DNA of 40,290 nucleotides, taken from NCBI GenBank assembly GCA_964561665.1, contig CAZLQA010000001.1, positions 1 to 40,290 on the forward strand, written 5' to 3'. The position numbers were made by a program, and so were the translations under genes. Below the pieces are notes generated by a model. The model was not told where the DNA came from and made no database searches. It saw only the letters and a list, made by a program, of their open reading frames with translations. Every line of letters starts with the position of its first letter. The first letter of the stretch is position 1. The stretch is from Candidatus Woesearchaeota archaeon. Its GTDB lineage: Archaea > Nanobdellota > Nanobdellia > Pacearchaeales > GW2011-AR1. This document shows positions 2,402-40,063 of this stretch, one piece after another.

Positions 2402-3208
2402 TCACTTCACGCTTTTCATATCTTTCCACGCCATCTCGAAGAGCTGCTCCAATGCCGAGGCAAAAAATTCCGTGTTTATCCATACTCCTGTGTCATAGTT
2501 TGGATGGAACTTCTCGTCATCAAGAAGCATGAACATTATCTGGTTTGAATCCACTATCACAAATCTTGCCCTCATTTTTTCCATGTTCTTCACTTCGGCG
2601 ACTTTTTTCAAATCTCTTGCAACCTTTATATTGTTGCTGTCAATTGGCGCCGCAATTTTTATCTTCACACCTCTCTTCTTGCACTTTTCCATGCTAGGCA
2701 ACAAAGCCTCGAGTTTCCTGTTAAGCCCCTCTTTTGTCGTTATTATCGTGATTGTTTTCTCCGCAGTCCTTATCATCATGTCGATATGATTGTAAAGGTT
2801 CTGCCTTCCCCTCAGGCTTCCTGAAAGATCGGCGGGCTCGACAAATTTTATTCCCTCTGTGAACAAAGTGTTTAGCTCCTCCAAAACCTCGTCGCCTTTC
2901 ATTGTCTCAAGTCTTTTTGTCTTTTCCTGCGTTTCCTTTGCGAGGTTTCTCTTTACTCTTTCAATAACTTCCTCGGGCTTTAATGCAACAAATTTTATTG
3001 GCTTACCGAGTTTCATCACGATAAATCCCTTCTTGTCAAGCGATTCAAGAATATCGTATGTTCTGCTTCTTGGAACATCCGAAATGCTGCTTAATTCCCC
3101 CGCCGTTGATGTTCCGCGAGAAAGAAGAGCTGCCCACACTTTTACTTCATAAAGATTCAAATCAAAAATTTTTCTCAGCCTGCTCAGAAGTTCGTCTTTT
3201 ATTATCAT
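2402..3208 (-). CDS. TrmB-family transcriptional regulator
   Basis: The N-terminal winged HTH (LYEVKVWAALLSRGTSTAGELSSISDVPRSRTYDILESLDKKGFI) is typical of TrmB. The 268-aa length and C-terminal sensor-like domain also fit. Confidence 0.85.
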   Translation of the reverse strand: MIIKDELLSRLRKIFDLNLYEVKVWAALLSRGTSTAGELSSISDVPRSRTYDILESLDKKGFIVMKLGKPIKFVALKPEEVIERVKRNLAKETQEKTKRLETMKGDEVLEELNTLFTEGIKFVEPADLSGSLRGRQNLYNHIDMMIRTAEKTITIITTKEGLNRKLEALLPSMEKCKKRGVKIKIAAPIDSNNIKVARDLKKVAEVKNMEKMRARFVIVDSNQIMFMLLDDEKFHPNYDTGVWINTEFFASALEQLFEMAWKDMKSVK

Positions 3209-3331: not shown

Positions 3332-6181
3332 CTACTTTACCACTAAAATCTCCCCTTTTTTGTCTTTTATCTGAAAGTCAGTTTTGTTTTTAAATCTTTC
3401 CTTGTCAGTTGTAACATCTTCGGAAATTATCTTGAATTTTTTCGAATTTGTCCTTTCTTTTATAAATTCTTCCTGTTTTTCCAGCATGTTTTTTAACCCA
3501 TTGTCAGTCGATATAATCAACTCTATCTTGTCCTTCTTGTGCAGCCCGAGTTTTTTTCTGAATTCCTGCACCTGCCTCAAAAGCTCGCGGGCATATCCCT
3601 CAGATTCAAGTTCAGGCGTTTGTGTTGTATCAAGTTCAATAATCATTCCACCCTCATTTTTATTTAATTTTAGCTCAATCTTTTTTACATTTAATTGCGA
3701 TTTTATTATCTCTTCTTCCTCTTTTTTTAGTTTATAATCTCCGCCTATAACAGTTGCTTTCGCCAAAGGCCACTTCAAGCCAACTTCCTTTTTTTCCCTC
3801 TCTCTTAAGCCTGCAGAGACTACATTCCTGATAACTTCCATTTTTTTCAAAAGTTTTCTGTCGGTATGTTTATCTTCAAAATCAGGAAAGCTTTCCAAAT
3901 GAACTGATTTTGTTTTTCCATTAAGAGTCTGGTAAATTTTTTCCGCGGTAAACGGAAGAATAGGTGCAACGGACTTTGAAAAGATTTCCAAAACATACCT
4001 CAAAGTTTCACGGGACAATTTTTCATCTTCAAATCTTTCCCTTCCAGTCCTTATGTACCATGTAGACAAATCATCTGCAAATTTTCTTATTTCCTCGCAG
4101 GATTTTATTGTGTTGTAATCTTTAAGGCAGGAACTAATTTCGCATCCGAACTCATTCAGTCTCGACAGCATCCACTTGTCCGTCAAATTTCTGCTTAATG
4201 GCTTTTTGGTTTTCTCCTTTTTTCCGATAGTTTCGTAAAACCTTAGCGAGTTATACAAAATCAAAATAATCTTTTTGTAAACTTCCCCCACCCCCTTGTC
4301 CGAAAAATTAAGGTCTTCTGAGTTCATCACCGAGCCCGACATGAGATAAAATCTCAGGGCATCCGCCCCGTATTTGTCAACAAGTATCATAGGATCTGTA
4401 AAATTATTCTTGCTTTTGCTCATTTTTTGCCCGTCTTCCGCAAGGACGGTTCCCGTTGTAACAACATTTTCGAAAGGAATGTCATCAAACAAAATTGCCG
4501 ACAAAACCATCATGTAGTAAAACCACGTCCTTACCTGTGCTATGTATTCCACGACAAAGTCTGCGGGAAAGTTTTTTTTGAATAGGCTCTCGCTTTCAAA
4601 AGGATAATGAAACTGCGCAAAAGTCATTGCTCCCGATTCAAACCAGCAATCCAGAACTTCCGAAACCCTCTTGAATTTTTTCCCGTCTTTCTCAAGAATG
4701 ATTTTATCAAGATAATCCTTGTGCAGGTCTATTTTACCCTTAAGATTTTTCGAGTATTTTTTTAGCTCTTCCACGCTCCCTATAATTATTTTCTCTCCGT
4801 CTTCGGAAGTCCACACGGGCATTGCGCTTGCCCAATATCTGTTTCGCGAAATGTTCCAGTCCGGCGCGGTTTCAATCGTGTATTTCACGCGCCCTTCCTT
4901 GAGGAAAGTAGGATACCATTTTATCTTTTCGTTCAGTTTCAAAAGTTTCGGCTTTATCTTTTGTATATCCACAAACCACGCGGGTATCGCCCTATAAATC
5001 AGCTTTGTGTCACAACGATAGCAAAATGGATATTCGTGCTCCGTATTTTTTACCAAAACAACTTTATTTTGCTTCCTTAGGAATTCTATAATATCCCTGT
5101 TTGAATCATGAACAAATTTTCCCTTAAAGTCCTTGGCTTCAGGAGTGAATCTTCCTTTTTCATCAACAGGCTGCACAAGGGGAATCCTGTAATTCTTGCA
5201 GACATTGTAGTCGTCTTCGCCAAAGGCAGGGGCAATGTGGACAATTCCCGTTCCCTCATCCGAATTTACAAAATTTCCGAGCAGAAACCTGAATGCATTT
5301 TCGGTATTTTTGAAGTAAGGAAACAAAGGCTCGTATTTTTTTCCTTCAAGTTTTCTTCCTTTTATTTTTTCTACAATCTCATACTCTTTTCTGTCCCTGA
5401 AAAAATTGTCAAGAACTTCCCTTGCCATGAGATAAACCTCCTTGCTTGACTTGTCTTTTACATAAATGTAGTCCAAATCAGGGTTCACTGCAAGGGCAAG
5501 ATTTGAAGGGAGAGTCCAAGGGGTTGTTGTCCACGCCAGGGCATAAGCATCCTCCTCTTTTAGCTTGAATTTGACAACGATGGAATTTTCCTTTATCATT
5601 CTGTACGAATTGTCCATTGCAATTTCCGCCTTCGCCAGAGGGGTGGAGCATCTCGGGCAGTACATCAAAACTTTCTCACCCTCGTAGATATATCCCTTTT
5701 CCCACAGCTTTTTGAATGCCCACCACACGGATTCAATGTAATCGTTGTCCATAGTCCTGTAAGATTCCTTCATGTCAACCCACCTCCCTATCCTGTCTAT
5801 AACATTTTCCCACGAGCCTGCATACTCCATGACGCAGTGCCTGCAGTAGTCATTGAATTTTTTCACGCCTATTTTTTCTATCTCGTCCTTAGAGTTTATT
5901 TTTAGCCCTTTTTCAGCGATGTTCTCTATGGGAAGTCCGTGGCAGTCCCACCCCCATATTCTTCTTACATATTTTCCGTTCATCGTCCAGAATCTCCCGA
6001 AGACATCCTTTGTGACGGAGCCGAGAATGTGCCCGTAATGCGGAAGTCCCGTCGCGAAGGGAGGGCCGTCATAAAAAATGTAAGGTTTCCCTTTTTTTGT
6101 TTTTTTAAGGGATTTTTCAAAAGTCCTGTCTTTTTTCCAGAATTTTAATATCTCTTTCTCCTCTTCGTTGACATCAGCCAT
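3332..6181 (-). CDS. ileS: Isoleucyl-tRNA synthetase
   Basis: 949 aa with HIGH region (PPFATGLPHYGHIL), KMSKS (KMSKSKNN) and an editing-domain-type TTTPWTLPSN motif. Confidence 0.95.
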   Translation of the reverse strand: MADVNEEEKEILKFWKKDRTFEKSLKKTKKGKPYIFYDGPPFATGLPHYGHILGSVTKDVFGRFWTMNGKYVRRIWGWDCHGLPIENIAEKGLKINSKDEIEKIGVKKFNDYCRHCVMEYAGSWENVIDRIGRWVDMKESYRTMDNDYIESVWWAFKKLWEKGYIYEGEKVLMYCPRCSTPLAKAEIAMDNSYRMIKENSIVVKFKLKEEDAYALAWTTTPWTLPSNLALAVNPDLDYIYVKDKSSKEVYLMAREVLDNFFRDRKEYEIVEKIKGRKLEGKKYEPLFPYFKNTENAFRFLLGNFVNSDEGTGIVHIAPAFGEDDYNVCKNYRIPLVQPVDEKGRFTPEAKDFKGKFVHDSNRDIIEFLRKQNKVVLVKNTEHEYPFCYRCDTKLIYRAIPAWFVDIQKIKPKLLKLNEKIKWYPTFLKEGRVKYTIETAPDWNISRNRYWASAMPVWTSEDGEKIIIGSVEELKKYSKNLKGKIDLHKDYLDKIILEKDGKKFKRVSEVLDCWFESGAMTFAQFHYPFESESLFKKNFPADFVVEYIAQVRTWFYYMMVLSAILFDDIPFENVVTTGTVLAEDGQKMSKSKNNFTDPMILVDKYGADALRFYLMSGSVMNSEDLNFSDKGVGEVYKKIILILYNSLRFYETIGKKEKTKKPLSRNLTDKWMLSRLNEFGCEISSCLKDYNTIKSCEEIRKFADDLSTWYIRTGRERFEDEKLSRETLRYVLEIFSKSVAPILPFTAEKIYQTLNGKTKSVHLESFPDFEDKHTDRKLLKKMEVIRNVVSAGLREREKKEVGLKWPLAKATVIGGDYKLKKEEEEIIKSQLNVKKIELKLNKNEGGMIIELDTTQTPELESEGYARELLRQVQEFRKKLGLHKKDKIELIISTDNGLKNMLEKQEEFIKERTNSKKFKIISEDVTTDKERFKNKTDFQIKDKKGEILVVK

Positions 6182-6230: not shown

Positions 6231-6385
6231 GAGTCGACCTTGCTTGGAATTAATAGTTTAAATTTGTCCTCGCAAAGTCGCTCGGCTCATAATTTATGAA
6301 AAAATTAACAAAAAACCTGTTTTATGCTAACATTATTATCAATAAGCGAACGCAGTGAGCCTTTTGTATGACAAGCCTTGAAATC
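6231..6385 (+). repeat. Dispersed mosaic repeat, copy A
   Basis: It shares the exact 21-mer ggaattaatagtttaaatttg (6246-6266 = 14966-14986) and the exact 20-mer ataagcgaacgcagtgagcc (6342-6361 = 15119-15138) with copy B. The tail ttttgtatgacaag matches copy C. Confidence 0.8.
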
Positions 6386-7316: not shown

Positions 7317-7430
7317 TTTTTGTATTAATCATCTATTTCAAGTGATATTATCTGCAGTTTTTACATTAGAAATTTACATCAATATACGAACGACGAAGGA
7401 GTGAGCCATTTTGTATAATAAGTCAAAGCA
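7317..7430 (+). repeat. Dispersed mosaic repeat, copy C
   Basis: tttttgtattaatca..aagtgata.tatc.gc.gttttt matches copy D (9638-9683). The core aatatacgaacgacgaaggagtgagccat (7381-7409) is 28/29 identical to the reverse complement of 21944-21972 (copy F). Confidence 0.75.
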
Positions 7431-9637: not shown

Positions 9638-9760
9638 TTTTTGTATTAATCAATTCCTTAAGTGATAATATCCGCGGTTTTTGTATTAACAACTTACATC
9701 AATTAGCGAACGAGTGAAAAGTTATTCAGTGCTTGGCGAAGCGTATGCCTAATCGCTTTT
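9638..9760 (+). repeat. Dispersed mosaic repeat, copy D
   Basis: The left part matches copy C. The core is ..acatcaattagcgaacgagtgaaa. The right part agttattcagtgcttggcgaagcgtatgcctaatcgctt matches the 53-bp tandem unit at 16670-16785. Confidence 0.8.
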
Positions 9761-9815
9761 GAACAAAGCCCTACAGCACAATAAATTTTAAAACCCGTTG
9801 AGATTTTTCTAATTC

Positions 9816-10658
9816 ATGTACAACAAATTCCTTATAGTTGCTAGCAAGAAAGACCCTGCAGGCGTGAACATAACAACGCAATTGAGCCAGTTCAGGAAAA
9901 ATCCGGTTATTCCCGATGCAAAGAAAGACGGAAAAGAGTTTGATTTCTATCTTGTTGAGGAAGAGATAATTTATACGGAAAACCTTAACATGGAAAAAAT
10001 AGGCAAGTATGATTTCGTAATTTTTGCCTCCAAGCACAGCTCTTCCGGCGAAGAAAAGAGAAAATCTCTTACAATTCATTCTCCCGGAAATTTCAGAAAC
10101 GCGCAGTTCGGGGGAGAAAAGGGAAAAGTTTGCAAAACCTCGGCAATGTTCCACAAACAGCTCTTTGAAAAACTGAATGAAACCGCAAAGAAGCATGATT
10201 TGAGAAATTATGACATAACCCTTGAAGTGACTCATCACGGCCCCTTGATTGACAAGCCGTGCCTGTTCATTGAAATAGGCCCCACAGAAACCGAATGGAA
10301 AAACAGAAGGGTGGGCTTTATTATGGCAGAGACAATTTACGAAACCATTTTTGGATTCAAGGAAAATCCATACAACGAAGTTGCGATAGCCATTGGAGGC
10401 CCGCATTACTGCCCAAACTTTAATAAAATTCAGGAAAATTCAAACCTTGCAATTTCGCACATCATTCCCCAGTATAATTTTCCGCTTACAGAGGAAATGG
10501 TTAAGGAAGCCGTGGAAAAAACTGAAGAGGAAATCGATTTGGCTGTTTTGGACTGGAAAGGACTCGGCAATTCGGAGCAGAGGAATGAAATTCTAAAAAT
10601 TCTAGACAGGTTATATATCAGGTATGAAAAGACGAGTGATGTCGGAAAGTCTAATTAA
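9816..10658 (+). CDS. dtdA: D-aminoacyl-tRNA deacylase, archaeal type (DTD2/DtdA)
   Basis: The IVASKKDPAGVNI, FASKHSS, EVTHHGP and IGGPHYCPNF motifs are characteristic of the archaeal tRNA_deacylase family. Confidence 0.85.
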   Translation: MYNKFLIVASKKDPAGVNITTQLSQFRKNPVIPDAKKDGKEFDFYLVEEEIIYTENLNMEKIGKYDFVIFASKHSSSGEEKRKSLTIHSPGNFRNAQFGGEKGKVCKTSAMFHKQLFEKLNETAKKHDLRNYDITLEVTHHGPLIDKPCLFIEIGPTETEWKNRRVGFIMAETIYETIFGFKENPYNEVAIAIGGPHYCPNFNKIQENSNLAISHIIPQYNFPLTEEMVKEAVEKTEEEIDLAVLDWKGLGNSEQRNEILKILDRLYIRYEKTSDVGKSN

Positions 10659-11331
10659 CAACTAACCCCCGCACAACCAACTCCTCAAAAAACAGCTTTT
10701 TTGAGTTTATCACCTTTGATTTATAGCCAAGTTTCTCGAAATTCACTTCTTTAGACAATGAGCTGGTTACAACAAATATTCTGCCGTTTTTGTTCAGGTA
10801 ATCCTTGGCATCTTTCAGGAATTTTATTGTTAATTCATTGCCTTTTTTTCCGCCTGTCGTGGCTATTTGCGAATCTTCTGGCTCTTTTTCATCCAAAGGC
10901 AGGTAAGGGGGATTAAAAATAATAATGTCAAATTTGCTTGGAAAAACTGCAATTCGCTCGCCTAAAGGCTCGCTAATTTGTCTCGCACTTTCGCGCTCGT
11001 TTTGATTTATTTGATAATCTCTCAACCTCATTAAGTTTTTTGTTATATTGGTTTGATGTGGGCAAAATCTAAAATTTTTAAACAAATCAGATTTTATACA
11101 ATTAAATCCCTTATCTTTGCAACATTTAACTGCATTTTCATTAATATCCGTTCCAAAAATATTCTCTTTTTTTACCCCAATGTTGAAGGCTGTCTGCAAC
11201 AAAATTCCCGAGCCAGAGCCGATTTCAAGAAGGTTAAGATTTGGATTTTTCTTCAGGATTTTAGGAATTTCTTTTTTAAGGGTTTCACTTAAAAGATAAG
11301 AATCTTCTGCAGGTTGATAGATTGAAATCAT
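10651..11331 (-). CDS. HemK/Mtq2-like SAM-dependent (glutamine-N5) methyltransferase carrying a ~45-aa internal insertion
   Basis: It has YQPAEDSYLLSE, GSGSGIL (motif I) and IIFNPPYLP (NPPY). I prefer the start at MISIYQP.. (11331), because the tracked N-terminus MNTVSLFKIKEIKQK lies in repeat copy H. Confidence 0.8.
   Translation of the reverse strand: MISIYQPAEDSYLLSETLKKEIPKILKKNPNLNLLEIGSGSGILLQTAFNIGVKKENIFGTDINENAVKCCKDKGFNCIKSDLFKNFRFCPHQTNITKNLMRLRDYQINQNERESARQISEPLGERIAVFPSKFDIIIFNPPYLPLDEKEPEDSQIATTGGKKGNELTIKFLKDAKDYLNKNGRIFVVTSSLSKEVNFEKLGYKSKVINSKKLFFEELVVRGLVVN
10936..11070 (+). repeat. Repeat-family-like sequence inserted in frame inside the Mtq2/HemK-like gene
   Basis: It encodes RFCPHQTNITKNLMRLRDYQINQNERESARQISEPLGERIAVFPS, between SDLFKNF and KFDIIIFNPPY. 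It shares ggctcgctaa (10966-10975 = 25277-25286) and ttttgatttatttgataatc / ctttgattcttgatgttaacc with the Trm5 insert. Confidence 0.5.
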
Positions 11332-11357
11332 TTTTTGTTTAATTTCTTTTATTTTAA

Positions 11358-11495
11358 AAAGGCTCACCGTGTTCACATATTGATTTAACTATTAATATAA
11401 AACTAACTTATTTTATGACTAATGCAGGATTTGTGCTATCATCTCATTAATTGCGAGAATTTATTCGAGCACATTTAAAGTAAGCCGAAGGCGAA
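11358..11495 (-). repeat. Dispersed mosaic repeat, copy H (inverted orientation, right end truncated at the cstA stop)
   Basis: aaggctcaccgtgttcacatatt.. matches copy F (atggctcactcc..gttcgtatatt). ..cattaattgcgag and aagccgaaggcgaaccatttta match F (gaagccgagataaggcgaaccaatttta). Confidence 0.7.
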
Positions 11496-14910: not shown

Positions 14911-15185
14911 AAGAAGCAGTTTCTGTTTAAAGTGGTTTGCCTTATCTCTTCTCCCGACCCCGCTCGGAATTAATAGTTTAAATTTGCCATTCGCAAAGTC
15001 GCTCTACTCGCACCCGCACTCATTATTAACTAAAAATTGCCTCGTGCAAATGCTCGGCTCACAATTGATGAAAAATTAACTAATAGAAAAACAACTTTTA
15101 TATTAACAACCTTTACCGATAAGCGAACGCAGTGAGCCATCTCATTTAATAATTTAATAAAAATAAGTAAGTTCTAAACAAAGCC
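14911..15185 (+). repeat. Dispersed mosaic repeat, copy B (longest copy, contains an internal module duplication)
   Basis: It carries all the modules: left end aagcagtttctgtttaaagtggtttgcc, ggaattaatagtttaaatttg, tcgcaaagtcgctc / tcgtgcaaatgctcggctcacaattgatgaaaaattaac, ttttatattaacaa..ataagcgaacgcagtgagcc, and right end aaaataagtaagttctaaacaaagcc. Confidence 0.85.
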
Positions 15186-16639: not shown

Positions 16640-16790
16640 TTAAATTTAATCAAGCCTCTCGCTGTCGTTCGCTTATTGGTGAAGTTCTAGTTATTCAGTG
16701 TCTGCCGAAGCGTATGGCTAATCGCTTATTGGTAAAATCCTAGTTATTCAGTGTCTGCCGAAGCGTATGGCTAATCGCTTAATGATATAA
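16640..16790. repeat. Dispersed mosaic repeat, copy E, including a 53-bp tandem array (2.2 units, 16670-16785)
   Basis: The unit cgcttattggt[g/a]aa[g/a]t[t/c]ctagttattcagtgtctgccgaagcgtatggctaat starts at 16670, 16723 and 16776. It is preceded by cctctcgctgtcgttcgcttatt, an inverted version of the ..gcgaacgacg..gagtgagcc core. Confidence 0.8.
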
Positions 16791-21897: not shown

Positions 21898-22055
21898 TGG
21901 CTTTGTTAAAAAAATTCCAAATTGATTTGGTTTGTTAAAAAAAATGGCTCACTCCTCCGTCGTTCGTATATTAATAACAATTTTAATCCAAACCTAGTTA
22001 TTTTTTCATCAATTGTGAAGCCGAGATAAGGCGAACCAATTTTAAACAGAAACTC
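21898..22055 (-). repeat. Dispersed mosaic repeat, copy F (inverted orientation, both ends present)
   Basis: ggctttgttaaaaaaa.. is the inverted right end. atggctcactcctccgtcgttcgtatatt is the inverted core (28/29 to copy C). tagttattttttcatcaattgtgaagccgag is the inverse of ctcggctcacaattgatgaaaaattaacta. taaggcgaaccaattttaaacagaaac is the inverted left end of copy B. Confidence 0.8.
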
Positions 22056-22111: not shown

Positions 22112-22681
22112 ATGTCTTATGATATTCAGCTCGGAAGAAACAAGTCGGACAAGAAGCTGTTCGGGGAAAGGGGGTTTGTTTTCCTTGGAAAAAGCTATGT
22201 AAAAATGGGGCAGTATGATTCCCTGAGCAACAGGATTTTAATGGACATTTCAAGAAGCCACGTGGTTCTCGTCGCTGGAAAAAGAGGCTCCGGAAAATCA
22301 TACACCCTCGGCGTGATAGCGGAGGAGCTCTCAAATCTGGAAAAGGAAACAAGCCAAAACATCGCCTCTTTGTTTTTTGACACCATGGGAATTTATTGGA
22401 CGATGAAGTTCCAGAATGAAAAAGACAAGGACTTGCTTTACGAGTGGGGGCTGAAGCCAAAAACGCTGCCTGTAAAAATTTTCGTGCCTTTCGGGCATTA
22501 CCAGTCCTACGTTGAAAAAAGAATTCCCGTTGACGAGCCTTTTGCCCTAGATGTCACTGAATTAGAGGCGGAAGATTGGATTATAACTTTCGGATTGGAC
22601 ATGATTCATCCCGTATCTGTCTTGATTGAAAGAATAACAAGCCGCTTGAAAAAAGAGGGCAGATTTACAATAAGAGATTGA
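22112..22681 (+). CDS. HerA/DUF87-type P-loop ATPase, N-terminal segment (ends at an in-frame TGA)
   Basis: Walker A is present (VAGKRGSGKSYTLG). The ORF ends ..GRFTIRD-TGA at 22679-22681. Confidence 0.75.
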   Translation: MSYDIQLGRNKSDKKLFGERGFVFLGKSYVKMGQYDSLSNRILMDISRSHVVLVAGKRGSGKSYTLGVIAEELSNLEKETSQNIASLFFDTMGIYWTMKFQNEKDKDLLYEWGLKPKTLPVKIFVPFGHYQSYVEKRIPVDEPFALDVTELEAEDWIITFGLDMIHPVSVLIERITSRLKKEGRFTIRD

Positions 22682-22741: not shown

Positions 22742-23422
22742 TTGTTTGAAGCCGCGGAAACGTGGGGAATTTTCTCGGAGAAGGCGGAGGAATCCACAAG
22801 AATAGAGGAGTTGGTTTCGGGAGGAAAAACAAGCGTTTTGGACTTGAGTGTTTACAATTCGATAGGGAGCTTCAACGTCCGCGCGCTCGTGATAAGCCTT
22901 GTCTCAAGAAAAATCTTCAACCAAAGAATGAATGCAAGAAAAAAAGAGGAAGTAAAGTCGGTTTCGGGCGGTTTTGATTTTTCTGCATCCTCTGAAAAAA
23001 AGGAAAGCCCACTCGTATGGATTTTTATCGACGAAGCCCATGAGTTTCTTCCTTTGAACGAAAAAACAGCCGCAACAGACGCGCTCGTGCAGTTGCTAAG
23101 AGAAGGAAGGCAGCCGGGAGTTTCAGTTGTTCTTGCAACGCAGCAGCCCGGGCAGATTCACAGGGACGTGATGACTCAGTCGGACATTGTAATCTCTCAC
23201 AGAGTCACAAGCCAGCAGGACCTGGAAGCCCTGAACCAGATAATGCAAAGTTATCTTATCGAAAACATAAAAAAATACATGGACGAACTCCCAGATATAA
23301 GAGGCTCTGCGATAATACTCGACGACAACTCGGAGAGGATTTACCCCGTGAAGATACGCCCGAGATTCACATGGCACGGGGGCGAGGCGCCTACCGCAAT
23401 AAACGCTGAAAAAAGGATTTAA
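22742..23422 (+). CDS. HerA/DUF87-type P-loop ATPase, C-terminal segment, in the same frame as 22112..22681
   Basis: The frame is open from 22682 (IKNIEDDGKSSVETKSAAAGLFEAAETWGIF..). Walker B is VWIFIDEAHEF, followed by ATQQPG and ISHRVTS motifs. There is no in-frame ATG or SD near the 5' end; the tracked start is a TTG. Confidence 0.75.
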   Translation: MFEAAETWGIFSEKAEESTRIEELVSGGKTSVLDLSVYNSIGSFNVRALVISLVSRKIFNQRMNARKKEEVKSVSGGFDFSASSEKKESPLVWIFIDEAHEFLPLNEKTAATDALVQLLREGRQPGVSVVLATQQPGQIHRDVMTQSDIVISHRVTSQQDLEALNQIMQSYLIENIKKYMDELPDIRGSAIILDDNSERIYPVKIRPRFTWHGGEAPTAINAEKRI

Positions 23423-24995: not shown

Positions 24996-25889
24996 CTATA
25001 AAATCTTCAAGTCAACCCTTACCCTGAATTTGTAAGGCGCAATTTCACCCGCTTTTTTGAAATTAAGGATTTTAATTTTCTTTTTTGATTTTTTTGCTTC
25101 ATCAAGAATTCTTTCCCTAACAGAATCAATCTCGTCATCCTTTGCAAAATCATAGTAAAAAATCCTTGTCCCTTTTTTGCTTAAGAAAAAAGCCTCTTTA
25201 AGAAAACTTTCCTTCAACTGGGGACGGGGCATAACAATCACGTCGTATTTTTTTGGGATTTCCTGCAAGTTTAATCGGCTCGCTAACACTCGCCTATTTC
25301 TTTGATTCTTGATGTTAACCATCTGATTTGTTTTTTTATCAACATAATTCTTACCAATCTGCGAATGTGAATAAGCGGCTAATCTCTTAACACCTCCCTG
25401 AATCACCTGAACCTTATCCTCAACTTTATTCAGCTTAGAATTAAGCTTCGCATACCTGCCCGCTTCTCTATTAATCTCGATGCTTGTAACTTTCCCCGCA
25501 GGCGAATTTCTTGCAATGACAATTCCATAAGGATTTATACCCGAAAACATCACAAGCACGTTCTCGTTTCTTTTTATTTTTCCGGAGATTTCCGCCCTCT
25601 CGCTGCTTAACCTAGGGGAGAAGTATGTTGAATCCACATTAAACCTGAAAATGCATCCGTTTTCCCTGTAAAGAGCTTCTTTTGTCTTAACACCAAGAAT
25701 CCACCTCGTTTTCTGCTTTCTCAAACGTCCTTTAAATCGCGAGGTTTTCTCAAGAACTGTCCTTACAGACTTATACTGCCTAAGGATTTTTTCGGCTATT
25801 TTTTTCTTTTCATTTGCCTTTGATTCTCTTGGAAATTTTAAAATTGCAATATTTCCCATAATGTCAATTCCCGATGGTTTTTTGCCCAT
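24996..25889 (-). CDS. Trm5/Taw2-like (Met-10+) tRNA methyltransferase carrying a ~43-aa internal insertion
   Basis: It has IDIMGNIAILKF, FRFNVDSTYFSPRLSSER, VLVMFSGINPYGI (SAM motif I region) and DVIVMPRP (the NLP-type motif IV position). Confidence 0.8.
   Translation of the reverse strand: MGKKPSGIDIMGNIAILKFPRESKANEKKKIAEKILRQYKSVRTVLEKTSRFKGRLRKQKTRWILGVKTKEALYRENGCIFRFNVDSTYFSPRLSSERAEISGKIKRNENVLVMFSGINPYGIVIARNSPAGKVTSIEINREAGRYAKLNSKLNKVEDKVQVIQGGVKRLAAYSHSQIGKNYVDKKTNQMVNIKNQRNRRVLASRLNLQEIPKKYDVIVMPRPQLKESFLKEAFFLSKKGTRIFYYDFAKDDEIDSVRERILDEAKKSKKKIKILNFKKAGEIAPYKFRVRVDLKIL
25254..25382 (+). repeat. Repeat-family-like sequence inserted in frame inside the Trm5-like gene
   Basis: On the + strand, ..cggctcgctaacactcgcc..tttgattcttgatgttaacc..tgtttttttatcaacataattcttaccaatctgcgaatgtgaataagcgg aligns at roughly 70 percent by eye with copies A and B (ggctca..atttatgaaaaaattaac..tgttttatgctaacattattatcaataagcgaacgcagtgagcc). 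Confidence 0.55.
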
Positions 25890-32030: not shown

Positions 32031-32067
32031 TTATTGCTTAAATAAAATAACTTTATAAACATTTTTT

Positions 32068-32109
32068 GGGCTTTATTGGAAAATTAGTTAAAGTTTTTTC
32101 GCGAACCAT
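32068..32109. repeat. Possible short fragment of the repeat family upstream of the Nop2/Sun gene
   Basis: gggctttattggaaaattagttaaag resembles cgcttattggtaaaatcctagttattc (the 53-bp unit). cgcgaaccat resembles ggcgaaccat in copies F and H. The match is weak. Confidence 0.3.
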
Positions 32110-32113
32110 AATA

Positions 32114-33232
32114 ATGAAGCACAAAATTGAGCTAAAACCTGCTTTTGCAGAAAGAATGGAATCCCTTCTCGGGAAAAAAGGTTTTGAAGAGTATATCTTA
32201 TTTCTGGAAAAACCGTTGATGAAATCAATCCGCGCAAACACCCTGAAAATATCCGTAAATGAGCTCAAAAAAAGGCTTGAAAAAAAATCCTGGGTTTTAA
32301 AGCAGCCTTTCAGAAAATTCCCTGAGGTGATGATTGTTGAAGGGAAAATTGCCGGTAAAAACAAAGAGGATAATGATGATAATTATAAAGGCAACGTTGT
32401 AAAAAATTTCCATAAGTTAGTTAATGCAAATAAAGATGGGGGCGAACGAAGTGAACTTTTGGGAGGGAATAATCGAGCGAAGCAAGGCAAAATAATAGAC
32501 TTGGAACCCGGAGAACTTGGAAGAAGCCTGGAGCATCTTCTCGGATACTATTATGTTCAGGACATTTCAAGCATGCTCCCTGTTATGGCACTAAACCCCG
32601 CGAAAAACGAATCGGTGGTTGACTTATGCGCCTCTCCCGGAAGCAAGACAACCCAAATCTCAGCCATGATGAACAACCTTGGAGTTTTAATAGCAAACGA
32701 CGTGAAACTTGAAAGAATAAAAATACTCGCTTCAAATCTTGAGCGCTGCGGAGCCTCAAATGTGATAATGACAAAAAACTACGGGGATGTTTTGTGCAAA
32801 AGAATGAGGAGGATAGGATTCCAAGCAGACAAAATACTTATTGACGCCCCGTGTTCCGGAGAAGGAACGATAAGAACATCCACTATGACTGCAAAGATGT
32901 GGAACGCAAACAGAATTTACAGCCTGTCGGTGATACAAAAAAATCTTCTTGCGGGAGCCGTGGAAATCCTGAAAAAAAACGGCGAGATAATTTACTCAAC
33001 ATGCACCCACACTCCGGAGGAAAACGAGGAAGTCGTAGATTGTATATTAAATAATTTTAAGAATATAAAAGTTGAAAAGCCTTTGCTCCCAAAAGAACTA
33101 AAGGCAAATCCGGGAGTTTTGGAATGGCAGGGGAAATCTTATTTAAAAGAAGTAAAAAAATGCGTGAGAATATACCCCCAAGACAACAACACCGAGGGTT
33201 TTTTCATAGCAAAACTGAGGAAAATAGGATGA
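32114..33232 (+). CDS. NOL1/NOP2/Sun-family RNA cytosine-C5 methyltransferase carrying a ~50-aa internal insertion
   Basis: It has IRANTLKIS, HLLGYYYVQDISSMLP, DLCASPGSKTT, IDAPCSGEGT and YSTCT motifs. I prefer the start MKHKIELKP.. at 32114. The stop overlaps the next ATG (ATGA). Confidence 0.85.
   Translation: MKHKIELKPAFAERMESLLGKKGFEEYILFLEKPLMKSIRANTLKISVNELKKRLEKKSWVLKQPFRKFPEVMIVEGKIAGKNKEDNDDNYKGNVVKNFHKLVNANKDGGERSELLGGNNRAKQGKIIDLEPGELGRSLEHLLGYYYVQDISSMLPVMALNPAKNESVVDLCASPGSKTTQISAMMNNLGVLIANDVKLERIKILASNLERCGASNVIMTKNYGDVLCKRMRRIGFQADKILIDAPCSGEGTIRTSTMTAKMWNANRIYSLSVIQKNLLAGAVEILKKNGEIIYSTCTHTPEENEEVVDCILNNFKNIKVEKPLLPKELKANPGVLEWQGKSYLKEVKKCVRIYPQDNNTEGFFIAKLRKIG
32351..32503 (+). 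repeat. Repeat-family-like sequence inserted in frame inside the Nop2/Sun gene
   Basis: The exact 13-mer gcgaacgaagtga (32442-32454) equals 40007-40019 of copy G. About 35 nt downstream it is followed by gcgaagc, as in copy D (gcgaacgagtgaaa..30 nt..gcgaagc). The segment encodes GKNKEDNDDNYKGNVVKNFHKLVNANKDGGERSELLGGNNRAKQGKIID. Confidence 0.5.
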
Positions 33233-39868: not shown

Positions 39869-40063
39869 AACAAGCAGTTTCTTTTTGAAATGTCTCGCCT
39901 CTCGGCTTCGCAATTAATGAAAGAATTAACTAACTAAAAACCAACTTGTCTTGTACTAACATTTAAAGGAAAGGTTAAGCGAAGGAAACCTTGGTGTCCT
40001 CGCTATGCGAACGAAGTGAGCATTTTTCAACAATCAAAAATAAGTATTTTCTAAACAGGACTG
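39869..40063 (+). repeat. Dispersed mosaic repeat, copy G (both ends present)
   Basis: The left end is aacaagcagtttctttttgaaatg. It also carries ctcggcttcgcaattaatgaaagaattaactaac, the core tatgcgaacgaagtgagca, and the right end aaaaataagtattttctaaacaggactg. The right end reverse-complemented (cagtcctgtttagaaaat) resembles the left end (cagtttctttttgaaatg). Confidence 0.8.

Follow-up and report, generated by a model that had tools for sequence, protein, structure and literature searches.

In the window analysed here, a stretch of 40,290 nucleotides from a Candidatus Woesearchaeota archaeon, a short repeat is dispersed between the genes, and a gene for an RNA m5C methyltransferase of the Nop2/Sun family carries 51 additional in-frame codons that share a short, rare motif with that repeat. 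The question raised by this locus is whether the additional codons are a copy of the repeat and, if they are, when and how such a copy came to lie within a coding sequence.

Host gene and position of the insert

The host open reading frame spans positions 32066–33232, with ATG 32114 as the probable start, giving a protein of 372 amino acids. The protein matches PF17125 (the RsmF-type N-terminal domain) and PF01189 (the catalytic domain), and the catalytic motifs IL(I)DAPCSGEG and YSTCTH do not vary across the alignment; the presence of PF01189 with the DAPCSG and TC(T/S) cysteine motifs, together with PF17125, places it in the RsmB/RsmF/Nop2–Sun group. The nearest solved structures are 1IXK, 2FRX and 3A4T (E values of 1e-42 to 1e-48). 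The two-domain architecture and the catalytic motifs are shared with P. horikoshii PH1374 (1IXK), M. jannaschii Trm4 (3A4T) and E. coli RsmF/YebU (2FRX), whereas these three proteins have about three residues at the position at which the host protein has its 51-residue insert. The gene and the insert are located as follows.

32114–33232, + strand: Nop2/Sun (RsmF/Trm4) family RNA m5C methyltransferase gene (open reading frame, Pfam, PDB relatives and AlphaFold2)
32348–32500, + strand: in-frame insert of 51 codons (I79–D129) in the linker between the N-terminal and catalytic domains (alignment to insert-less homologues)

The 153 nt of the insert were bounded against insert-less homologues from Pacearchaeota (..PEIMIIES-E-LEPGEL..). 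The insert-less homologues have two residues at this site, and not the 10–15 that the original prediction had assumed for archaeal homologues; the coordinates proposed there, 32351–32503, are correct in extent and differ by a shift of one codon, no more than the uncertainty in placing the boundary. Measured between the matches to the N-terminal and catalytic domains, the gap is three residues in PH1374 and 57 in the query. In the AlphaFold2 model of the host protein (pLDDT 88.7), residues 84–122 of the insert have a pLDDT below 50 and no secondary structure, with values above 90 for the remaining protein, and the insert is predicted from this model to be a disordered inter-domain loop at a position that the protein fold tolerates. 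Three features are distinguished within it.

32417–32425, + strand: AT-rich box TTAGTTAAT, 25 nt upstream of the hexamer pair (likeness judged by eye)
32442–32456, + strand: hexamer pair GCGAAC-GAA-GTGAAC (GYGARC-N3-GYGARC), the conserved arm of the element (motif scan)
32457–32483, + strand: TTTT, GGGAGGG, AATAAT and a second CG island, CGAGCGAAGC, which encodes ..LGGNNRAK.. (DNA-level conservation with the orthologues L087 and L088)

The second CG island uses the rare arginine codon CGA, and all of the CGA arginine codons in the Nop2 genes of the window, L087 and L088 fall inside the insert.

Distribution of the insert among homologues

Inserts at the same site occur in about 68% of 120 homologues of 52–60% identity, corresponding to about two thirds of the homologues from Pacearchaeota; the insert is missing in 38 of the 120 and is hypervariable in the others. 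This distribution contradicts a fresh, genome-specific insertion. The insert peptide is too short as a query and gave no matches in the protein databases. The occurrence of open inserts throughout the family also bears on the explanation that the segment is an untranslated intervening sequence (a bulge–helix–bulge intron or an intein-like segment) that is removed from the RNA or the protein. Although DNA-level conservation beyond the requirements of the peptide, as described below, would be consistent with this explanation, more than 80 homologues have inserts of 5–80 codons that remain free of stops and in frame despite an A+T content of about 65%, and the loci checked contained no frame-disrupted homologue of the kind that an intron would predict. 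Moreover, 51 residues are far too few for an intein, and no helix is predicted around the boundaries at the level of the family, so that an intervening sequence is highly improbable.

The repeat between the genes

The element constitutes a multicopy dispersed DNA family, with at least eight intergenic copies in the 40 kb (nhmmer E values of 1e-25 to 7e-10) and additional copies just outside the window. The copies referred to below are the following.

6266–6371, + strand: copy A, core at 6346–6360 (nhmmer, 83 bits; motif match)
7341–7418, + strand: copy B, the core of which has a 6-nt expansion (nhmmer, 40 bits; B-like homologue in L007)
9660–9752, + strand: copy C and the C/F module (profile; module conserved in L170)
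11354–11471, − strand: copy D (nhmmer, 58 bits; motif at 11362–11376)
15039–15149, + strand: copy E, extended copy from 14903 (nhmmer, 77 bits; motif match)
21935–22033, − strand: copy G (nhmmer, 56 bits)
39898–40033, + strand: copy H, with an exact 13-mer (nhmmer, 60 bits; H-like homologue in L087)

Copy D lies directly upstream of the methyltransferase gene at 10651–11376. The start of this gene, GTG 11376, is probably mis-called inside the repeat copy, and ATG 11331 is the likelier start. A TATA-like box, at about 26 nt, is also present in the intergenic copies and by eye resembles the AT-rich box of the insert.

For the comparison between species, loci were sampled around the Nop2 gene, and Trm5 belongs to the same neighbourhood, a choice of loci that carries no information on the possible methyltransferase bias raised in the original prediction. 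With the full-length family profile, other species yielded no copy at E < 0.01; this result is misleading, because more sensitive pairwise scans found homologous intergenic modules in L007, L024, L087, L154 and L170. Intergenic copies were absent from 21 kb of L175 and from 9 kb of L009. The proposal that the element can stay open in both orientations is not compatible with the intergenic copies, which have stop codons in almost every frame.

The hexamer-pair core

The core of the element consists of two GYGARC hexamers spaced by 3 nt. The peptide on which the prediction of an in-frame, repeat-related insertion in the Nop2 gene was based is present, the insertion is real, and its DNA shares this invariant core. 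As had been noted, an exact 13-mer, GCGAACGAAGTGA, is common to the insert (32442–32454) and an intergenic copy (copy H, 40007–40019). The sequence GCGAAGC is likewise found downstream of the core (32477), but its spacing of 35 nt is only similar, and not equal, to the intergenic spacing of 30 nt (9706/9736). Taken alone, the 13-mer is weak, with a blastn E value of about 0.1–0.4 (insert against the window; a 13/19-nt match only), and a word of at least 13 nt in common with the repeat set is found in 2.3% of 153-nt windows.

For the complete pair, GYGARC-N3-GYGARC, five sites were counted in the window, where dinucleotide shuffles predict 0.03. This is about 170 times the expectation, and the five sites are four intergenic repeat cores and the Nop2 insert, the sole site that is not intergenic. 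Exact matches in other DPANN loci, about 780 kb in total, were confined to four Nop2 inserts, an intergenic site in L024 and sites outside long open reading frames in L025 and L154, with none in ordinary coding sequence. With at most one mismatch, it is present in six of 13 Nop2 inserts, against a background of 0.0115 per kb. A core-only profile scores the Nop2 insert at 9.4 bits, a value reached by none of 400 composition-matched (dinucleotide) shuffles, and places eight of 16 pre-defined insert segments above the level met by 2% of shuffles.

These counts have to be weighed against the possibility that a disordered linker simply expanded in this lineage, by slippage that generated AT-rich, N/K-rich low-complexity sequence; the likeness to the repeat core would then be a coincidence arising from a 9-nt tandem duplication. 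In inserts of the SERSEL type the hexamer pair does coincide with a visible 9-nt tandem duplication (AGTGAACGA followed by AGTGAACTT), which is a possible slippage product, the region is disordered, and single GCGARC hexamers show no enrichment (26 against 18.7 expected). However, the excess of the pair motif, the insert as its only non-intergenic site in the window and the failure of composition-matched shuffles to yield it all argue against coincidence, and the motif recurs in orthologous inserts that are free of the duplication (L091, L174, L175 and L009), including in a second reading frame.

Comparison of the insert with the full-length element

Beyond the core, the insert in the window is not recognizable as the element. 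The full-length family profile aligns to it with E = 1.4 over 19 nt only, pairwise alignment to the element gives z = 0.8, and in a control with natural coding sequences 23% score at least as high as the window Nop2 copy, which is no outlier; only the L009 Trm5 insert and L170 stand out. The 5′ two thirds of the insert have no similarity to the element, and a profile of the 5′ part of the family gave nothing usable with nhmmer against the upstream region of the insert. No significant alignment was obtained to the inserts of L174, L175 or Trm5, a profile of the in-CDS copies from L175 Nop2 and L009 Trm5 does not recover the window Nop2 copy, and a profile of the insert core detected no further copy anywhere searched. 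The lack of an extended alignment, which the original prediction had itself listed as an outcome that would count against it, was thus the outcome for the copy in the window; both this and the lack of further copies of the insert core are as expected for linker expansion. The window copy matches the element only through a core of 15–19 nt, and its assignment therefore rests on orthology.

Nucleotide conservation in orthologous inserts

The motif is exact in the Nop2 inserts of L087, L088, L089, L091 and L174 and has one mismatch in those of L175 and L009, and it lies on the sense strand in eight of eight species. The hexamer pair is kept at the DNA level in at least eight species and in two reading frames, although its flanks are hypervariable: the translation of the 15-mer GTGAGCAAAGCGAAC is G-E-Q-S-E in L174 but V-S-K-A-N in L091. 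For the peptides GEQSEP and NEQSEP, the underlying codons were predicted beforehand, and the predicted codons were found. At identical residues, codons are identical in 13 of 14 cases in the core and in 80 of 169 elsewhere (p = 7.6e-4). Between the window and L087, codon identity is 18/22 across the insert, compared with 84/176 (about 48%) in the rest of the gene, and the figures for L171 and L172 are 23/28 and 129/240. The window insert is strongly homologous to those of L087 and L088 (z of about 20). What links the group comprising the window, L087, L088 and L089 to the group comprising L174, L175 and L091 is an identical site of insertion, together with the rare motif and a single weak alignment (L088 with L174, z = 3.0).

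A recent transposition of the genome's own intergenic repeat in the sense orientation, which the original prediction implied, would explain the exact 13-mer shared with copy H of the same genome, as well as the GC before GAACGAAGTGA, which is specific to the window and makes the insert more like the local repeat copies than its orthologues are. However, orthologues with only 58–61% protein identity outside the insert also contain it, with a core that is about 90% identical at the DNA level, and the 5′ two thirds of the insert are unlike the element; we give a recent origin scarcely any credence. Gene conversion from the local copies is a conceivable source of the 13-mer that is specific to the window, on a comparison of just two genomes.

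Conservation of nucleotides in two frames, with the motif always in the sense orientation, would also be expected of a host nucleic-acid signal (an operator, a promoter internal to the gene, or an RNA site recognized by a factor or by the methyltransferase itself) recruited into an existing loop, with the intergenic copies being further sites of one regulon rather than a mobile element. The AT-rich box about 25 nt upstream and the T-run after the motif recur in the same arrangement in the intergenic copies, the 9-bp period of the direct hexamer repeat is reminiscent of a protein-binding site, and copies D, H, B and C lie just upstream of genes in the sense orientation. Against this, copies A, E and G point into convergent genes, neither a consensus RNA fold nor an Rfam match was obtained, no regulator was identified and, as shown in the following section, the entire 110-nt body, and not only the site, is common to the Nop2 and Trm5 inserts. 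A host signal as the origin of the segment is therefore considered unlikely.

The element in Trm5 and in a possible third gene

Two further genes in the window contain inserts that are relevant to the identity of the element.

25254–25386, − strand: in-frame element copy in the Trm5/TYW2 gene at 24996–25889 (profile, E = 3.6e-5)
10939–11076, − strand: insert in the methyltransferase gene at 10651–11376, possible third copy (about 45 extra residues from Pfam coordinates)

The insert in the window Trm5 gene comprises about 40 codons and has an orthologue in L009 (z = 13), which in turn aligns with intergenic copy G over 56 nt with about 79% identity. The L175 Nop2 insert aligns end to end with the L009 Trm5 insert over 108 columns (score 36.5, shuffle null 15.3 ± 2.4, z = 8.9) and also aligns with the window Trm5 insert (z = 5.3). 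The profile built from the L175 Nop2 and L009 Trm5 copies alone is the one that detects the window Trm5 insert with the E value listed above, and it gives copy G 9.2 bits. At the peptide level, AHS[HR]SQINKK is common to Nop2 P0045 and Trm5 P0140 (BLASTP E = 7e-6), and a profile–profile comparison (hhalign) of the insert-peptide alignments was negative. Judged by these alignments, the same element is present in two unrelated genes, Nop2 (in L175) and Trm5. For the window Nop2 copy, identity with the Trm5 element would follow indirectly, through orthology and the motif. The relation of the insert to the dispersed repeat, as originally suggested, is in this way supported by orthologues that carry the DNA motif and by the homology of about 108 nt between the L175 copy and the Trm5 insert. 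The earlier candidate reading that the insert is unrelated to the repeat (L087 seemed to be without the family) was dropped after the motif and cross-gene results. Linker expansion likewise does not account for L175, where the insert at this site can be shown to be the element that also occupies Trm5, and we regard such an expansion as distinctly unlikely.

The L175 Nop2, L009 Trm5 and window Trm5 copies have one common orientation relative to their coding strands. The contrast that had been drawn between a sense copy in Nop2 and antisense copies in the other genes does not hold for these well preserved copies: the ends of the element are inverted, and the contrast is apparent because the window Nop2 copy kept the other arm. 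The insert at 10939–11076 contains two GCGAGC hexamers, at 10956 and 10968, but has no profile match and gives z = 2.5 against the L009 Trm5 insert; it is a possible, unproven third copy.

Nature of the element

The ends of the element carry inverted hexamer-pair modules (GGCTCAC...GTGAGCC), and the 5′ half of the L175 copy aligns with the reverse complement of its 3′ half with a score of 8; no clear long terminal inverted repeat was found. RNAalifold predicted no pairs in a consensus RNA structure of the family on either strand. A hairpin seen by eye in inserts of the GEQF type was rejected, with one compensatory change against two disruptive changes. Permissive Rfam scans of copy E and the insert returned only noise with E above 1, and searches for tRNA, C/D-box sRNA and 5S-like candidates gave nothing near threshold, the window holding just two tRNAs. 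With regard to mobility, no target-site duplications were noticed by eye around the copies, those in coding sequences being too diverged for such a test, and no transposase partner was found in the roughly 43 kb of this genome that the analysis covered. A scan of viral contigs (IMG/VR) gave a single chance-level match in a GCGA-rich array. No literature on such elements in DPANN or Pacearchaeota was found.

Discussion

Taken together, the 153-nt segment is best explained, with a probability of roughly two in three, as an in-frame copy, old and in part decayed, of a palindromic repeat found widely in Pacearchaeota. Such an element would be about 110–130 nt in length, with an AT-rich interior and ends formed by GYGARC hexamer pairs in inverted orientation, and its copies would lie between genes and, in one orientation and frame, within coding sequences. 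Insertion into Nop2 and Trm5 by transposition or recombination may have occurred in the ancestor of a large Pacearchaeota clade, with survival limited to insertions that preserved the frame and landed in loops where these essential genes tolerate them. The insert peptide would then be a translated passenger that evolves almost freely. The persistence of the hexamer-pair arm could be due to a role as a sequence-specific protein-binding site, namely the terminal site of the element, possibly co-opted as an operator-like site beside the AT-rich box; alternatively, the arm could have been homogenized repeatedly by gene conversion or by re-insertion from other copies. Of the two, we favour a binding site; the hexamer pair in GCGAACGAAGTGAAC may be such a site, and the TrmB-family regulator at 2402–3208 is one candidate for the protein that binds it.

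A more far-reaching reading, in which the element is a living counterpart of the Rickettsia palindromic elements (RPEs), its hexamer-pair ends are protein-binding sites maintained by selection even within coding sequences, in frames that differ between species, and the Nop2 and Trm5 linkers are dual-use DNA, is speculative, and we think it doubtful. Were it true, RNA-modification enzymes would be coupled in their expression, through these linkers, to the intergenic copies as a set. To our knowledge, repeat elements that colonize essential genes in frame are so far known from Rickettsia bacteria; if this also holds for DPANN archaea, such colonization would arise independently in small, AT-rich, reduced genomes. 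An origin from an element would explain inserts in two Pacearchaeota proteins that otherwise resemble low-complexity noise and that alter the lengths of homologous proteins between species, and the 15-nt hexamer-pair pattern provides a handle for a census of the element, for dating its insertions and for finding a binding protein.

Among known systems, AT-rich genomes such as that of Plasmodium falciparum contain Asn/Lys-rich low-complexity protein inserts, which the present inserts resemble in being hypervariable, rich in N, K, D and S, disordered, located between conserved blocks and length-polymorphic among relatives, but from which the present insert differs in having a conserved CG-containing island that is shared with intergenic repeats and with the insert of another gene. 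The element resembles miniature elements of the MITE type in its length of about 100–150 nt, AT-rich interior, inverted similar ends and many non-coding, intergenic copies. Unlike MITEs, it has no detected target-site duplication or autonomous partner with matching ends, it ends in imperfect hexamer-pair modules rather than a clean terminal inverted repeat, and its modules are conserved across distant species, which would be unusual for a purely selfish MITE.

The closest parallel is with RPEs, repeat families of about 150 bp that lie in frame in many unrelated genes (PMC10969869). The present host is an archaeon (DPANN/Pacearchaeota), with two proven host genes and a doubtful third compared with dozens in Rickettsia, and its inserts are far more decayed and variable in length; the hexamer-pair arm is kept as DNA even across frames, and no palindromic fold has been demonstrated here. 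The relation is accordingly drawn as an analogy and not as membership of the RPE families. In both systems a short multicopy element occurs between genes and inside open reading frames, where the frame is kept and a peptide is added, the same element-derived DNA and peptide appear in unrelated proteins (here Nop2 and Trm5), the insertions occupy surface or disordered positions, and copies at orthologous sites are shared between species.

The insert in the RNA m5C methyltransferase gene

The window belongs to a Pacearchaeota-type DPANN archaeon; its sequence has repeatedly been assembled out of Rifle-type groundwater metagenomes, and an identical copy of its Nop2-type protein is found on 18 contigs, the longest of which is 105,867 bp. 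The gene and its insert are as follows.

32114-33232, + strand, RNA m5C methyltransferase gene, 372 aa, with an RsmF-type N-terminal domain and an RsmB/F catalytic domain
32348-32500, + strand, insert (extra residues I79-D129), from alignment with 120 homologues

The nearest solved structures are those of P. horikoshii PH1374, E. coli RsmF/YebU and M. jannaschii Trm4. Alignment of the 120 homologues (52-60% identity) showed that the original prediction had described and placed the insert accurately to within one codon, and that the site, flanked by ..PEVMIVEGK and LEPGELGRSLEHLLGYYY, is hypervariable, with no extra residues in 38 of the 120 and 5-80 in the remainder; the open reading frame is kept through the insert in >80 homologues. 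In the AlphaFold2 model the pLDDT is above 90 throughout except for residues 84-122, where it falls below 50 and secondary structure is lacking, so the insert is predicted to be a disordered loop joining two folded domains.

The dispersed repeat family

Sequence comparison shows a real dispersed repeat family in the window, with further copies directly past its end.

Intergenic repeat copies in the window
6266-6371, + strand, repeat copy
7341-7418, + strand, repeat copy
9660-9752, + strand, repeat copy
11354-11471, - strand, repeat copy D
15039-15149, + strand, repeat copy
16669-16774, repeat copy
21935-22033, - strand, repeat copy G
39898-40033, + strand, repeat copy H

The copies are built of a 5' arm (..CTCGGCTCAC AATTGATGA..), an interior that is AT-rich and includes a TATA-like box, and a 3' core (..ATCAATAA GCGAAC NNN GTGAGCC) with a T-run after it. 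No Rfam match was found for the family, it is not a tRNA, and no consensus RNA fold was predicted for either strand. Stop codons occur in nearly all frames of the copies, which are not generally stop-poor, contrary to the earlier suggestion that the element stays open in both orientations. Homologous modules are present in intergenic DNA of other Pacearchaeota (loci L007, L024, L087, L154 and L170), and the family is therefore old and widespread. The core or body of the element was located in other DPANN at L024 7732-7751 (-) and L007 ~9757-9865, both intergenic, and at L154 1471-1485 and L025 2872-2886 (a contig labelled Iainarchaeum), both outside long ORFs; the element, or its motif, is therefore far older than the window genome.

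A module apart from the element, TTATTCAGTG.CT.G.CGAAGCGTATG.CTAATCGCTT, occurs at 16669-16774 and 9700-9752 of the window and at L170 16207-16245. In the window it lies in two tandem copies of 53 nt ahead of the SerRS gene, and it is kept upstream of CDC48 in another species; its 3-bp stem has GCC/GGC, GGC/GCC and CGC/GCG variants, which could be covariation. In L087 (16951-17266), a tRNA-Lys(CTT) gene (intron ~50 nt) that runs off the contig and escapes ARAGORN has its first 18 nt including the leader (AAATGGCTCCGTAGCTCA) duplicated in an adjoining H-like repeat copy. A GCGAAG/GCGAGC tandem array beside a terminase gene (L173 8760-8900, an IMG/VR contig) matches the repeat core exactly over a 20-mer; this is at chance level given the collection size, and the array was rejected as a relative. 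Two further pairs of internal DNA repeats are accounted for by paralogous coding sequence: 19548-19600/20693-20745 (N-terminal ends of the small and large RFC subunits) and 37052-37218/37874-38040 (the two AAA domains of CDC48). The window has a HerA-like gene in two pieces (22112-22681 and 22742-23422), which is one 436-aa ORF in L002 (23-1333) from the same population, and an undivided PolB gene, which is split in L001 (6515-9033); these splits are strain variants or assembly errors.

The hexamer pair and its conservation

The 13-mer common to the insert and the repeat is by itself weak evidence of kinship: a >=13-mer from the repeat set occurs in 2.3% of 153-nt windows, blastn gave E ~0.1-0.4, the full-length family profile gave E=1.4 with only 19 nt aligned, and pairwise alignment gave z=0.8. 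The common piece is the invariant core of the family, two GYGARC hexamers 3 nt apart. GYGARC-N3-GYGARC was observed five times in the window (0.03 expected), in four intergenic cores and in the Nop2 insert; lone hexamers are not enriched there, so it is their pairing that matters. With a core-only profile the insert scored 9.4 bits, rank 2 in ~1.86 Mb of DPANN sequence on both strands, a score attained by 0/400 dinucleotide shuffles.

The insertion is ancient and common to the orthologues, and is neither a recent event nor specific to this genome. The Nop2 proteins of L087, L088 and L089 are 58-61% identical to that of the window (insert excluded), and their insert cores are near-identical to it in DNA (z ~20). 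At identical residues, codons are identical at 13/14 positions in the insert core versus 80/169 elsewhere in the gene (p=7.6e-4), and the genes of the window, L087 and L088 have the rare Arg codon CGA nowhere but in the insert. Excess synonymous conservation is also seen in the independent pair L171/L172 (23/28 versus 129/240). The hexamer pair, on the coding strand in every case, is exact in the Nop2 inserts of L087, L088, L089, L091 and L174 and has one mismatch in those of L175 and L009; the remaining exact matches in ~780 kb of DPANN loci are in L024 (intergenic), L025 and L154 (outside long ORFs), with none in ordinary coding sequence. In L174 the identical 15-mer GTGAGCAAAGCGAAC is read as G-E-Q-S-E, and in L091 as V-S-K-A-N, so this arm is conserved as DNA, across two reading frames, and not as peptide. 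The codons GGY GAR CAR AGY GAR CCN, foretold for GEQSEP (protein P0005) and NEQSEP (P0045), were confirmed in both (2/2).

The same element in the Trm5 gene

The Nop2 insert of L175 (P0045) is well preserved; it starts with ATGGCTCAC TCACATTCGCAG ATTAATAA.., the reverse complement of the 3' core of the repeat, and ends with ..ATGAGC AAA GCGAAC C. Its alignment with an in-frame insert in the unrelated Trm5/TYW2 gene of another species, L009, extends over 108 columns (score 36.5, shuffle null 15.3 +/- 2.4, z=8.9, 0/300 shuffles), and the L175 insert also matches the Trm5 insert of the window (z=5.3); the three copies have identical orientation relative to the coding strand (3/3). A profile of the L175 Nop2 and L009 Trm5 copies only recovers the window Trm5 insert (25329-25386, -; E=3.6e-5) and weakly matches intergenic copy G, on the strand expected under inverted orientation; copy G and the antisense strand of the L009 Trm5 insert align with ~79% identity along 56 nt (z=6.0). 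Trm5 homologues, like Nop2, carry a hypervariable insert at one site in more than half of 120, and the two families have the peptides AHS[HR]SQINKK (BLASTP E=7e-6), RAG.R.G and SD[NS]ER in common. Because these copies align and share peptides, one element lies in frame within Nop2 and Trm5, two unrelated genes.

In the window Trm5/TYW2 gene (24996-25889, -), the in-frame copy spans ~25254-25386 and is common to L009; L087, L013, L015, L016 and L098 lack the insert, and L008 has a short one. In the L013 orthologue a different insert, of 22 residues (GFGKVGRQSRTSKNFHESKMSR), lies close to the N-terminus (~4400-4520).

The original prediction counted a third gene.

10651-11376, - strand, NPPY-type methyltransferase gene, candidate third copy (insert 10939-11076, ~45 extra residues)

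The cross-gene alignments bear out Nop2 and Trm5, but this insert, with two GCGAGC hexamers 12 nt apart, was recovered by none of the profiles used and is only a possible in-CDS copy. The loci compared were sampled around the Nop2 gene, and a bias of the element towards methyltransferase genes is at most conjectural. The called GTG start of this gene (11376) falls within copy D, and ATG 11331 is the likelier start.

Assignment of the window copy

The Nop2 copy of the window itself appears decayed: neither L174 nor L175 nor any of the Trm5 inserts aligns with it significantly, and the in-CDS profile misses it. Its assignment to the element draws on the fact that orthologous genes have their inserts at the identical site, on the rare hexamer pair at the equivalent place together with the GGGNGGGAATAA stretch common with L174, and on one weak bridging alignment (L088-L174, z=3.0). 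In the SERSEL-type inserts the motif coincides with a 9-nt tandem duplication, such as slippage could yield. The contrast previously drawn between sense and antisense copies is explained by the inverted ends of the element, since the window Nop2 copy kept one arm and the window Trm5 copy the other. No target-site duplication was noticed by eye around the copies, no transposase partner was found in the ~43 kb of this genome covered, and intergenic copies are absent from the stretches of L175 (21 kb) and L009 (9 kb) that were covered.

Discussion

The central idea of a repeat-derived in-frame insertion is supported by the hexamer-pair statistics, the orthologue DNA and the Nop2-Trm5 alignment, the last of which shows homology between element copies in different genes. 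An ancestor may have acquired the element in its genes via transposition or recombination, and only insertions that preserved the frame, in tolerant loops of essential genes, would have survived. The passenger peptide would then drift freely, with the hexamer pair retained either as a protein-binding site or via homogenisation with other copies. Neutral decay after one ancient insertion would leave unexplained the ~75% identity between the L175 Nop2 and L009 Trm5 copies, well above the identity between the Nop2 inserts of the window and L175, which are orthologous; the closer cross-gene likeness points to continuing constraint or turnover.

Rickettsia palindromic elements (RPEs) and in-frame MITEs are known from bacteria. 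The occurrence of one element in frame in unrelated genes, here Nop2 and Trm5, is the defining behaviour of RPEs (PMC10969869). No report of such elements was found in the literature on DPANN archaea. By analogy, the behaviour of the present element is that of RPEs and in-frame MITEs.
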